Under the pieces are notes generated by a model. The model made no database searches. It was not told where the DNA came from and worked only from the letters and a program-made list of their open reading frames with translations. Made by a program: the position numbers and the translations under genes. A stretch of 64,000 bases of DNA from the NCBI RefSeq assembly GCF_056746865.1, contig NZ_CM163382.1; one strand, written 5' to 3'. This document shows positions 16,782 through 51,994 of this stretch, piece by piece (the first letter of the stretch is position 1; each line of letters opens with the position of its first letter).

Positions 16782-16902
16782 GTGCAGCCTGAAAAACAGT
16801 GCTGTGCCCTTGTAACTCATCATAATAATTTACGGCGCAGCCAAGATTTCCCTGGTGTTGGCGCAGTATTCGCGCACCCCGGTCTAGCCGGGGTCATTTT
16901 TT
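16782..16902 (+). ncRNA. arcZ: ArcZ small RNA (Hfq-dependent), 3' end convergent with and overlapping arcB stop
   Basis: Sequence GTGCAGCCTGAAAAACAGTGCTGTGCC…GGCGCAGTATTCGCGCACCCCGGTCTAGCCGGGGTCATTTTTT matches the ArcZ sequence as I recall it, including seed region and intrinsic terminator. Confidence 0.8.
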
Positions 16903-30261: not shown

Positions 30262-31752
30262 TTAACTTTTGGTTTTGACTAAATCGTTTTTGGCGCGGCC
30301 AAATGGCACGGCACCGCTAAATGGTTTGCCGTCGATAGCGTCATGAGTACGCAATGCTTCCGGGCGCAACCAACGCTGAACGCGGGAAGGCATATCCAGA
30401 CCAATCAGCAGGATCACCACAAATGTCAGACTGAACGAGAGCGATGCCAGCGCAGTACCCAGATCCAGACGTTGAGCGATCAACGCGCCGATGATTGGGG
30501 CCAGTGCACCGCCCAATGCGCCGACGTTGTAGGTAAAGCCCAGGCCCGCTGCACGCTGGTCGGTATCGAAATAACCGCCAATCAGTTTCGGTAAGATCCC
30601 GGCGATCCCTTGTCCAAGCATTTGCTGGAAGAACAGTAACAGACCGAGCACCCAGACGTTTGCGCCGCCAATCGCAAATACCGGAATAATCAGCAGCTGC
30701 GAGGCCAGCAGGCTACAAACGTACGCTTTGCGGGTTCCCAGCCAGTCACCGAGGAAGCCACCTACGCAGCATCCCACCGCCGCGCCAAAGCCACTAAAGA
30801 ACAGCACATTGGCGACAGTATGCGGGTTATAAGCCAGATCGGTTTTCAGATACGTTGGCAGCAGCGCCTGAATCGGCCATGAGTAGAGGAAAGCAAACAA
30901 CACGACCACCATCAGCATTACGCCCGTTGGCCAGCGTTTGCCCGTACTTTGCACCATAAAGCTGATAAAGATTGCGGCGCATAACAGCCCAAGAACAGCG
31001 ACGATCGCGGCATTTTGCAGGTTACCGGCGAAGCAAAACCACAGCGCAGTAGCCGCCGCCAGTGTCATTACGATATTGGCAATGCGATGTTCACCACGGT
31101 AGAGAATATCTACCATCGTGCGTACTGGTGCTTTACCAGCATGTTTCTCTTTCCAGTCTTCCGCTTCCGGGATGTTTTTACGCAGCCAGAGAGCAAAGAT
31201 GATTGGCAAAATGCCGATAAAGAACAGCGCACGCCAGCCCCAGACCGGAACCACCAGGCTATAGACCTGAGCGGCAACGACGGCCCCCACAGAGAAGCCG
31301 GAAATCAGAAAACCACTGGCTTTATTACGCAGATGTTTTGGCCAGCTTTCAATGACATAGGTGGCGCTGGAACCGTATTCACCCGCCATCCCCATGCCGA
31401 TGACCAGACGAGCGATAAACATGGTGATGTAGCCTGGCGCAAAGCCGCAGGCCAGCGTCCCGGCCGAGAAGAGAACGATGCTGGTGACCATTGCCAGACG
31501 ACGCCCGTAGCGGTCACCCATAGCGCCGAGCATCAGGCCGCCGAACCAGCGAGAGATAAAGGCTGCGGAGATCAGACTTGCCGCCTGCACCGTCGTCAGC
31601 CCGAATTCACCTTGTACTTCGGTGAGTACCAGGGCGATTAAAACGAAATCAAAACCGTCAAGCAGATATCCCAACCAGGCAGCGGAAAATGCCCGCCATT
31701 GTGCACGATTGAGATGGCGATACCACGGGATATTCTGGGTTGTAGTACTCAT
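30262..31752 (-). CDS. nanT: sialic acid MFS transporter
   Basis: Start at internal Met [15 protein letters not shown] (496 aa); polytopic MFS. Confidence 0.9.
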
Positions 31753-31823
31753 TGTGAGTCTCCCGCGGTGGGCGATGCCCACACGCTTTGGTATGAAAAT
31801 TGTAGGGTACAGATGCGTTTATT

Positions 31824-31854
31824 TCCCCTCACCCGGTAGGGGCGAGCGAGGGGA
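31824..31854. repeat. GC-rich intergenic palindromic element (CCCCTCACCC…GGGGCGAGCGAGGGGA type) between nanT and nanA
   Basis: TCCCCTCACCCGGTAGGGGCGAGCGAGGGGA. Confidence 0.4.
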
Positions 31855-31860
31855 AACAAC

Positions 31861-32754
31861 TCACCCGCGCTCTTGCATCAACTGCTGGGCCAGCGCCTTC
31901 AGTTCTGGCAGATATTTTTCATCTACCGGTCCAAACGGTTTGCGGCACAGCGGCACAGAAACGACATCCATATAATGCAGGACCGTTTTCAGGCCGCGGA
32001 ATACGCCCGTTTTGATCAGTAAATCAATGACTTTATTACATTCGGTTTGCAGCTTCTGCGCGGTCTGGATATCGCCTTCTTTCAGCGCCTTCACAATCCC
32101 CTGATAACGCCAGCCCATGATGTTGTAGGTACTACCGATACCACCATCAGCGCCCGCCAGAAGACCAGAGGCGAAGATTTCGTCGTAACCGTTATAGAGC
32201 ACCAGATCAGGATGTTCACGACGGATCTGTTCCATCTGATAGAGATCGCCAGAGGTCTGTTTCAGCGCGCCGACACCAGGCAGCGTAACCAGGGTGTTGA
32301 TCTGATCCAGGGTTAGTTTTACCCCGCTCAGGGCAGGAATGTTGTACACCACCATCGGCAAACCATCCGCCGAATCAATAATTGCCCGATAGTGATCGCA
32401 GTGTTCTTCAAAGCTGAAAGGATAGTAGAACGGCGTGACGGCGGAGACGGCATCGAAGCCATAACGTTTAGCCGATGCCGCAAGTTGTTGGCTTTCAGCA
32501 GTGCTGACGCAACCGACGTGAGCGATGAGTTTAATCTTGCCTTTCGCCTCTTCGGCGACGATTTCCAGTACCTGTTCACGCTCGGAAAGGCTTTGTACAA
32601 AGGCTTCGCCGGTAGAACCACCCACGTATAAACCGTCGATGCCCTGCTGAATATTGAACTGAACCAGGCGACGCAGACTCGCTTTATCCAGTGCTTGTTG
32701 TTGATCAAAAGGAGTCAGGAGTGCGGCCATTACGCCACGTAAATTCGTTGCCAT
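31861..32754 (-). CDS. nanA: N-acetylneuraminate lyase
   Basis: Start at internal Met [16 protein letters not shown] (297 aa); DHDPS/NAL fold. Confidence 0.9.
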
Positions 32755-49476: not shown

Positions 49477-50406
49477 ATGGAACGACTAAAACGCATGTCG
49501 GTGTTTGCCAAAGTAGTTGAATTTGGCTCTTTTACCGCCGCCGCCAGACAGCTACAGATGAGCGTTTCGTCCATCAGTCAGACGGTGTCAAAACTGGAAG
49601 ATGAGTTGCAGGTAAAGCTGTTAAACCGTAGCACACGCAGCATTGGCCTGACCGAAGCCGGCAGAATTTACTACCAGGGCTGCCGTCGGATGCTCCATGA
49701 AGTGCAGGATGTTCATGAGCAACTGTATGCCTTCAATAACACCCCCATCGGGACGCTGCGCATTGGCTGTTCTTCAACTATGGCACAAAATGTTCTCGCC
49801 GGGCTGACAGCAAAAATGCTGAAAGAATACCCAGGTTTGAGCGTCAATCTGGTTACCGGAATTCCTGCCCCCGACCTGATTGCCGACGGTCTGGATGTGG
49901 TGATCCGCGTCGGCGCGTTGCAGGATTCCAGCCTGTTTTCCCGCCGTCTGGGCGCGATGCCAATGGTGGTGTGCGCCGCGAAAAGCTATCTCACACAATA
50001 CGGCATACCGGAAAAACCCGCCGATTTAAGTAGTCATTCATGGCTTGAATACAGCGTGCGACCCGACAATGAATTTGAACTGATCGCACCGGAAGGGATC
50101 TCGACTCGCCTGATCCCGCAAGGGAGATTTGTGACTAATGATCCGATGACGCTGGTGCGCTGGCTGACTGCAGGCGCTGGGATCGCCTATGTGCCGCTGA
50201 TGTGGGTGATCAACGAGATCAATCGCGGGGAGCTGGAGATCCTGCTGCCACGTTACCAGTCAGATCCACGCCCGGTTTATGCGTTATATACCGAAAAAGA
50301 TAAGCTGCCGCTGAAGGTACAAGTCGTGATCAACTCGCTAACGGATTATTTTGTTGAGGTCGGTAAATTGTTTCAGGAGATGCACGGGCGCGGGAAAGAG
50401 AAGTAA
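49477..50406 (+). CDS. aaeR: LysR-type regulator of aaeXAB
   Basis: 309-aa ORF with N-terminal LysR HTH, divergent from aaeX. Confidence 0.9.
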   Translation: MERLKRMSVFAKVVEFGSFTAAARQLQMSVSSISQTVSKLEDELQVKLLNRSTRSIGLTEAGRIYYQGCRRMLHEVQDVHEQLYAFNNTPIGTLRIGCSSTMAQNVLAGLTAKMLKEYPGLSVNLVTGIPAPDLIADGLDVVIRVGALQDSSLFSRRLGAMPMVVCAAKSYLTQYGIPEKPADLSSHSWLEYSVRPDNEFELIAPEGISTRLIPQGRFVTNDPMTLVRWLTAGAGIAYVPLMWVINEINRGELEILLPRYQSDPRPVYALYTEKDKLPLKVQVVINSLTDYFVEVGKLFQEMHGRGKEK

Positions 50407-50449
50407 TTAATATTATACTGTTACGTTGTACAAACCTGTGCCAACGGGT

Positions 50450-50481
50450 TCCCCTCACCCTAATCCCAGAGGGGCGAGGGG
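50450..50481. repeat. GC-rich intergenic palindromic element (CCCCTCACCC…GGGGCGAGGGGA type)
   Basis: TCCCCTCACCCTAATCCCAGAGGGGCGAGGGGA; a related copy lies at 31824-31854. Confidence 0.4.
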
Positions 50482-50533
50482 ACCGTTCGTGCACGTAAAA
50501 GGATTAATTATCCTTCTGAAAATACTGAAATTA

Positions 50534-51994
<1,461 letters not shown>

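Follow-up and report, generated by a model that had tools for sequence, protein, structure and literature searches.

Two intergenic palindromes of Escherichia coli as probable decayed copies of the BoxC repeat, one of them a stable hairpin in the nan mRNA

Introduction

The stretch of DNA analysed here (the window, 64 kb of E. coli, with both regions of interest 100% identical to strain 118UI) contains two GC-rich palindromes of similar appearance, one in the spacer between nanA and nanT and the other in that between aaeR and tldD. They raise the question of which family of elements they belong to, and of whether the first of them, which is transcribed within the nanATEK-yhcH mRNA and is fixed throughout the sampled Escherichia, has a function in that transcript. 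An initial annotation of the window had likened both to small dispersed intergenic repeats of the BoxC or RSA type, and had suggested that the nan copy could modulate polarity or mRNA stability.

As for the family, the BoxC repeats of the 1990s (Bergler/Bachellier), the PIT elements (Hoyne et al. 2000) and the TMECO elements are one and the same motif according to Holder et al. 2015 (PMC4666352). Its canonical form consists of three blocks, CCCTCNCCC-N3-6-GGGNGAGGG-N3-GGGNGAGGG, and strain MG1655 has 23 TMECO copies, all of them intergenic (PMC4666352). TMECO loci are reported to be unusually variable among strains, an instability attributed to the full three-block motif, while plain hairpins should not cause it; degenerated copies, and inverted pairs collapsing to simple stem-loops (the "palindrome effect"), have already been described (PMC4666352). 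The intrastrand triplex proposed for the motif was undetected in vivo by Holder et al., and neither these authors nor the works cited there report promoter or terminator activity, or a tie to the function of neighbouring genes, for BoxC (PMC4666352).

Position and architecture of the two palindromes

The features that define the two loci are the following:

31824-31854, minus strand: nanA-nanT palindrome core, two-block and BoxC-like
31861-31863, minus strand: nanA stop codon (UGA)
31750-31752, minus strand: nanT start codon
50450-50482, minus strand as the G-rich (TMECO) orientation: aaeR-tldD BoxC remnant, with 6 nt of the middle block deleted relative to MG1655
50404-50406, plus strand: aaeR stop
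50534-50536, minus strand: tldD stop

The nanA-nanT palindrome, TCCCCTCACCCGGTAGGGGCGAGCGAGGGGA, matches the string at 31824-31854 exactly, as first annotated; the aaeR-tldD palindrome, TCCCCTCACCCTAATCCCAGAGGGGCGAGGGGA, is 33 nt long and ends at 50482, one base beyond the end of 50481 initially assigned to it. The flanking stop and start coordinates bear out the genomic contexts given for both. The nan operon lies on the minus strand, with a spacer of 108 nt from the nanA stop to the nanT start; aaeR and tldD are convergent, with a gap of 127 nt between them. Both elements are therefore intergenic, the location that BoxC/PIT/TMECO copies have.

Both are also palindromic as described, in the form of imperfect inverted repeats: the nan element has arms of 17 nt, 82% complementary, with a spacing of 7 nt, and the aaeR-tldD element has arms of 11 nt, 91% complementary, with a spacing of 11 nt. 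Regarding their shared architecture, the block CCCCTCRCCC occurs three times in the 64-kb window, each time within one of the two elements, against an expectation of 0.19; this count was reached by none of 100 shuffles of the window. The composite pattern CCCCTCACCC-N(2-30)-GGGGCGAG has two occurrences where 0.00 are expected, so that the likeness noticed at the outset is far above chance. That two unrelated GC-rich palindromes resemble each other by accident might be argued from the common blocks, each only ~10 nt long; this reading has a negligible probability and was rejected, since the shuffle controls exclude it, the aaeR-tldD site is orthologous to a catalogued BoxC copy (TMECO no. 14), and canonical BoxC copies occupy the nan slot of other genera.

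In terms of BoxC blocks, the strict three-block pattern has no match in the window, and neither copy fits it: only the two outer, mutually complementary blocks are left in both. The likeness of the two elements comes from block 1 being almost the complement of block 3, and, with the middle block missing or truncated, each can form a plain hairpin and not the proposed three-strand fold. Their BoxC orientations on the plus strand appear to be opposite. What they have in common with BoxC/PIT/TMECO elements is the same block sequences, CCCTCNCCC and GGGNGAGGG, a strictly intergenic location and a dispersed distribution; they differ from them in lacking an intact middle block, and the nan copy differs further in being outside the 23 listed TMECOs of MG1655 and in being nearly invariant across E. 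coli, unlike typical TMECO loci. The family is dispersed in the genome, as the initial annotation supposed: a 61-nt BoxC query against 5,425 E. coli genomes found relatives at a median of 17 places per genome (range 2-33).

Other known families were considered for the two elements. The REP/BIME (PU) palindrome has the consensus GCC(G/T)GATG...CTTATC(C/A)GGCCTAC, and a direct reading found neither GCCGGAT nor ATCCGGC in either window element. The literature retrieved offers nothing that ties the two palindromes to the RSA repeat, whose consensus is roughly 150 bp long. A scan of the whole window with Rfam 15 at gathering thresholds returned only ArcZ and matched neither element; a permissive Rfam search of 31700-31900 gave chance-level matches only (E > 1), the aaeR-tldD spacer being covered by the gathering scan only. 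The ArcZ sRNA gene is an ordinary known feature, located at 16782-16889 on the plus strand (RF00081, 120 bits). Finally, a promoter scan found nothing at either element.

The aaeR-tldD element and its alleles

The catalogue of Holder et al. 2015 places TMECO no. 14 at MG1655 3,390,494-3,390,529 (Table 1, PMC4666352), and the exact 36-mer of this entry was found in the aaeR-tldD spacer of MG1655. On the plus strand, the MG1655 element reads CCCCTCACCC-TAA-CCCTCACCCC-AAA-GGGGCGAGGGG and that of the window CCCCTCACCC-TAA-TCCC-AGA-GGGGCGAGGGG: the window lacks 6 nt of the middle block and has a substitution in what is left of that block and another in the loop next to it; otherwise the two sequences correspond base for base. 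The aaeR-tldD element is thus orthologous to a canonical BoxC copy and is an allele of a catalogued BoxC/TMECO locus, which agrees with the family first proposed for it; the strict three-block pattern is present in the orthologous alleles of MG1655, O157 and strain D7.

Across 5,426 E. coli genomes the locus is polymorphic, with intact, 6-nt-deleted, 12-nt-deleted and IS-disrupted alleles. The intact three-block allele is that of K-12, O157 and D7; the 6-nt deletion occurs in the window and in 2009C-3133, and together with the loss of one further base in 20AH011; the 12-nt deletion of 1162C combines it with a second 6-nt loss, in the first block; and in EPEC1 an ISEc13 insertion lies within the element. 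Among 40 genomes picked at even steps through the ranking, the 6-nt-deletion type accounted for 21, the full allele for 14, the 12-nt deletion for 4 and the IS for 1. Likewise, a 61-nt query made from the full allele found 2,159 records at least 95% identical to it, and 2,671 that match only with a gap. Each deletion takes six bases between short C-runs, a sequence context that fits replication slippage, from which we infer the origin of the deletions; the three-block form is taken as ancestral at this locus by analogy, being the canonical form of the BoxC family. As for the insertion, EPEC1 is derived from E2348/69, and its ISEc13, an IS4-family element with the IS50-like end AGATCTGATCAAGAGACAG, sits in the BoxC remnant at about window position 50465; this is a single case.

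Together with its flanks, the element can fold in the transcripts of both genes:

50444-50488, either strand: extended palindrome with flanking AACGG/CCGTT, a hairpin on both transcript strands

Its folding energy is -27.0 kcal/mol in the aaeR-sense transcript (plus strand) and -29.7 kcal/mol in the tldD-sense one (minus strand). No dominant Term-seq 3' end at this BoxC (MG1655 33904xx-33905xx) appears in the tables of Adams et al. 2021. The same work reports a Rho termination region at about window position 50105 on the minus strand, antisense to aaeR (MG1655 3,390,148; Rho score 5.99, p = 5.5e-18), that is ~350 nt beyond BoxC on the tldD strand, so that the polymerase reads through the aaeR-tldD element; tldD transcription appears to run past BoxC into antisense aaeR before Rho stops it. 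Located in the common 3' region of two convergent genes, this copy is probably a neutral, decaying relic.

Identity of the nanA-nanT element

The core of the nan element, identical in MG1655, reads UCCCCUCGCUCG-CCCCUAC-CGGGUGAGGGGA in the mRNA sense. The two arms read CCCTC(A/G)C(C/T)C and GGGTGAGGG, and between them the loop retains a CCCC(C) run at the place where a canonical copy has the C-rich middle block. The comparison with sister genera is informative in this respect: strict TMECO matches are found in the nan slot, directly after the nanA stop, of Pseudocitrobacter faecalis (one), P. vendiensis (five) and Enterobacter sp. kpr-6 (two), and Kluyvera has a BoxC-like variant there. The alignment of the copies nearest to nanA, in the mRNA sense, is:

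Enterobacter sp. kpr-6: CCCTCACCC-TCA-CCCTCTCCC-TAA-GGGAGAGGGGA
E. albertii: CCCTCACCC-G-CCCCC-TAC-CGGGTGAGGGGA
E. coli: CCCTCGCTC-G-CCCC-TAC-CGGGTGAGGGGA

The nan element and the BoxC copies of the sister genera also have the same flanks, with GTTTTT towards nanA and AAACGCATC towards nanT. Slot, flanks, arms and the remnant of the C-run are together suggestive of a descent of the nan copy from canonical BoxC, and on this comparison we conclude that the nan hairpin is a BoxC derivative minus the middle block, decayed in the manner of the aaeR-tldD copy. The canonical copies in the sister genera agree with the BoxC affinity that had been proposed for it, and it is very likely that both window elements are decayed two-block BoxC copies, in which the middle block has been lost or truncated.

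The nan element may come from a single BoxC copy or from a collapsed inverted pair, and its orientation may be either, the remnant of the middle block being only 4-5 nt long. For the same reason, and given the near-symmetry of the element, a mapping of it to the BoxC blocks in a single orientation was dropped.

The nanA-nanT slot across Enterobacteriaceae and within E. coli

In 80 NanA loci across Enterobacteriaceae, the sequence between the nanA stop codon and the nanT start codon was compared. The same two-arm hairpin is present in all sampled Escherichia, namely E. coli, E. albertii, E. whittamii and two further Escherichia species; the palindrome is thus conserved in orthologous spacers, and the comparison leaves the initial assignment standing. 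Beyond Escherichia and the genera with BoxC copies, the slot holds one or two REP/BIME-type palindromes (GTAGGCCGGATAAGGCG...CCGCCATCCGGCA) in Citrobacter, Salmonella, Enterobacter and Lelliottia, and lineage-specific stems in Raoultella, Edwardsiella and others. Judged by these sequences, different repeat families have colonised one intercistronic site. A hairpin of -13 kcal/mol or lower, starting at most 16 nt past the nanA stop, occurs in at least 61 of the 80 Enterobacteriaceae species; the nanA-nanT spacers of Trabulsiella (32-33 nt) and Enterobacter sp. RIT418 (46 nt) have no hairpin, so a hairpin at this site is not essential.

In P. vendiensis the spacer has grown to 403 nt by a tandem 73-nt unit, present in 3.4 copies with a 94% match (locus L017, 3458-3742). 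This unit is made of one BoxC and a second palindrome, ACCGCTGGCGCGGT, and the five strict BoxC matches are those of the whole spacer; evidently, BoxC can amplify locally as part of a composite unit.

Within E. coli, 5,209 of 5,412 genomes (96%) match the 41 nt around the nan hairpin at 100% identity, and the variants inspected alter only the flanking U-run. For the 41-nt linker next to it, the figure is 4,831 of 5,408 genomes (89%), so the hairpin is only modestly better conserved than its neighbour. A fixed nan hairpin, set against a polymorphic aaeR-tldD locus, fits the claim of Holder et al. that instability needs all three blocks.

RNA structure of the nanA-nanT spacer

In the mRNA, the spacer is occupied by two hairpins with a linker between them:

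31820-31858, minus strand: nan mRNA hairpin, 16 uninterrupted pairs, with arms 31843-31858 and 31820-31835 and a 7-nt loop, 31836-31842
31787-31819, minus strand: A/U-rich linker between the two spacer hairpins, containing AAUUU
31765-31786, minus strand: second, smaller hairpin, GCG-U-GUGGGC-AUC-GCCCAC-CGC, abutting the nanT Shine-Dalgarno
31759-31764, minus strand: nanT Shine-Dalgarno, GGGAGA

The stem of the nan hairpin begins 2 nt past the nanA UGA, and its GC-rich core 7 nt past it. The predicted folding energy is -26.1 kcal/mol (z = -6.2) on the mRNA strand and -17.6 kcal/mol (z = -2.3) on the opposite strand. In nine Escherichia sequences, all 14 core pairs of the stem hold on the sense strand (100% paired); read as antisense, this helix is 81.9% paired, the four variable positions being broken. 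These four pairs vary in the 5' arm only, from C-G to U-G or from A-U to G-U, and the wobble keeps the pairing on the mRNA strand alone; convincing double-sided compensation was found at no stem pair among the nine sequences. Such a strand-specific wobble pattern, made up of about four substitutions, is what RNA-level constraint predicts; it could also arise from mutation biased from C to T on the coding strand.

Roughly 37 of the 80 Enterobacteriaceae loci share the smaller hairpin next to nanT. Over 12 genera, 98.6% of the cells of the alignment are paired and two of the six pairs are compensatory (AU/GC/GU and CG/GC/UA); an equal score was obtained in only 2-5 of 500 shuffles, the alignment used for this covariation being ungapped and right-anchored. 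Buttiauxella has a stem of other sequence at this place, and Citrobacter, Salmonella and Enterobacter are without it. It may be a translational element for nanT or one that protects its 5' end. No published description of it was found; similarly, the literature search found no described nanA-nanT stem-loop, and the reviews on sialic acid are silent on the spacer.

Termination and transcript ends

Like intrinsic (Rho-independent) terminators, the two elements are GC-rich stem-loops in transcribed spacers; they differ from them in having no U-tract after the stem on either strand. Past the stem, nan has the tails AAAUAAACG and AAACAAC, and aaeR-tldD has CCGUUCG and ACCCGUUGG; a terminator scan found no terminator-like site at either element. 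That the hairpins are terminators or attenuators causing polarity, be it of nanA versus nanT or at the ends of aaeR and tldD, is suggested by the stability of their GC-rich stems in transcribed spacers; against it stand the missing U-tracts and the empty scan at both sites, the Rho region for the tldD strand, which is located ~350 nt past BoxC within antisense aaeR, and the finding, in earlier cited work, that PIT elements have no terminator activity. Terminator identity was rejected on the scans and the U-tracts, and this reading is very improbable.

Regarding transcript 3' ends, the published Term-seq tables list no dominant one at either element, in the case of the nan hairpin at MG1655 33726xx (tables of Adams et al. 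2021). As for differential decay, the nan operon was among the 390 operons analysed by Dar and Sorek 2018 (PMC5927463) and is absent from their table of 47 differentially decaying operons. Both data sets, of 3' ends and of decay, were obtained on media lacking sialic acid, where the nan operon is repressed and weakly expressed. The role in polarity or mRNA stability suggested early on for the nan copy thus stays a suggestion, in view of the absence of a terminator signature, of a listed 3' end at the hairpin and of the nan operon among those with differential decay.

A strong Term-seq 3' end is instead internal to the nanA reading frame, at about window position 32709 on the minus strand, 45 nt into nanA (MG1655 3,373,531; score 54,366; Adams et al. 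2021). A short leader RNA from the 5' part of nanA, or premature termination, may account for this end, which is unrelated to the palindrome.

Possible functions of the nan hairpin

The reading that best accounts for the whole is that both palindromes are BoxC relics and that the nan copy is possibly a barrier to mRNA decay, with a probability of about 0.7 for this combination. By analogy with the REP hairpins of malE-malF, an endonuclease would cleave the nan mRNA in the A/U-rich linker, the nan hairpin would then block 3'-to-5' exonucleases, and the nanA segment would be favoured over that of nanT. The AAUUU of the linker conforms to RN|WUU, the motif given for RNase E by Dar and Sorek 2018 (PMC5927463), and may mark a cleavage site. 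The nan element resembles the REP/BIME stabilisers of mRNA (malE-malF; Dar and Sorek 2018, PMC5927463) in several respects: it is a stable GC-rich hairpin derived from a dispersed repeat, it lies just past the stop of a gene for a soluble protein and upstream of one for a membrane protein in the same operon, and REP itself fills the nanA-nanT slot in Citrobacter, Salmonella, Enterobacter and Lelliottia. It differs from them in lacking the GCCGGATG...CTTATCCGGCCTAC motif, and in that the nan operon is not among the 47 differentially decaying ones. Taken on its own, a REP-like role as a 3'-exonuclease barrier after cleavage of the linker is a tentative proposal.

The main rival, with roughly even odds, is that the nan hairpin is a functionless, neutral relic, which persists because a two-block hairpin is genetically stable and the spacer tolerates it. 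BoxC has no known function and plain hairpins are argued not to destabilise (Holder et al., PMC4666352), neither a 3' end nor differential decay is recorded at the nan site, the spacers of Trabulsiella and Enterobacter sp. RIT418 do without a hairpin, and the linker is nearly as conserved as the hairpin beside it; what a neutral relic accounts for less well is the strand-specific, wobble-only character of the substitutions, the fixation of the element across all sampled Escherichia species, and the recurrence of unrelated palindromes just past the nanA stop in at least 61 of 80 species. A different effect could follow from the proximity of the hairpin, less than 15 nt, to the nanA stop. By an account attributed to Liang, Rudd and Deutscher (2015), REP elements near stop codons reportedly disturb translation termination and lower output. 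By analogy, the nan hairpin, with its stem starting 2 nt and its GC-rich core 7 nt after the UGA, might lower the output of NanA, and a hairpin at 0-16 nt past the stop is found in most species; a built-in brake would sit badly with the induction of NanA, described as reaching up to 1000-fold, and this explanation is unlikely.

An action at the DNA level, in which non-B structures (triplex or cruciform) promote local instability or the elements serve as protein binding sites, is equally hard to favour. In its favour, the aaeR-tldD locus is strikingly polymorphic, including one IS insertion inside the element, in keeping with the instability of TMECO loci described by Holder et al. (PMC4666352); yet the third block needed for a triplex is missing from both window copies, the nan copy is extremely stable, and the triplex was undetected in vivo (Holder et al., PMC4666352).

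An extension of the decay-barrier proposal takes the spacer as a unit. The exapted BoxC relic, the linker and the hairpin at the nanT ribosome-binding site would form an intercistronic processing module, in which a cut in the linker would yield a nanA fragment protected at its 3' end and a nanT fragment structured at its 5' end, and the amounts of lyase and transporter would be uncoupled. On this view, unrelated palindromes (BoxC, REP and lineage-specific ones) would recur in the slot, in at least 61 of 80 species, owing to selection for a stable stem of whatever kind and not to mere tolerance of selfish repeats. This extension is speculative, and its probability is low.

Conclusions

The BoxC family, its degenerate copies and the instability of its loci were already published; what is new is the assignment of the nan hairpin to BoxC, the allele series at TMECO no. 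14, and the occupation of the nanA-nanT slot by different palindrome families according to the genus. The finding is real and largely ordinary, in that it concerns worn copies of a known repeat with no proven function. Its practical value lies in annotation: both palindromes should be labelled as BoxC remnants, and not as terminators or new RNA elements.

BoxC is among the oldest unexplained repeat families of E. coli, and the window contains two fates of its copies: the aaeR-tldD locus is still shedding 6-nt pieces across the species, and the nan copy became frozen as a plain hairpin before the Escherichia species split. If this frozen copy did set the NanA:NanT ratio, it would provide the first function for any BoxC-derived sequence.
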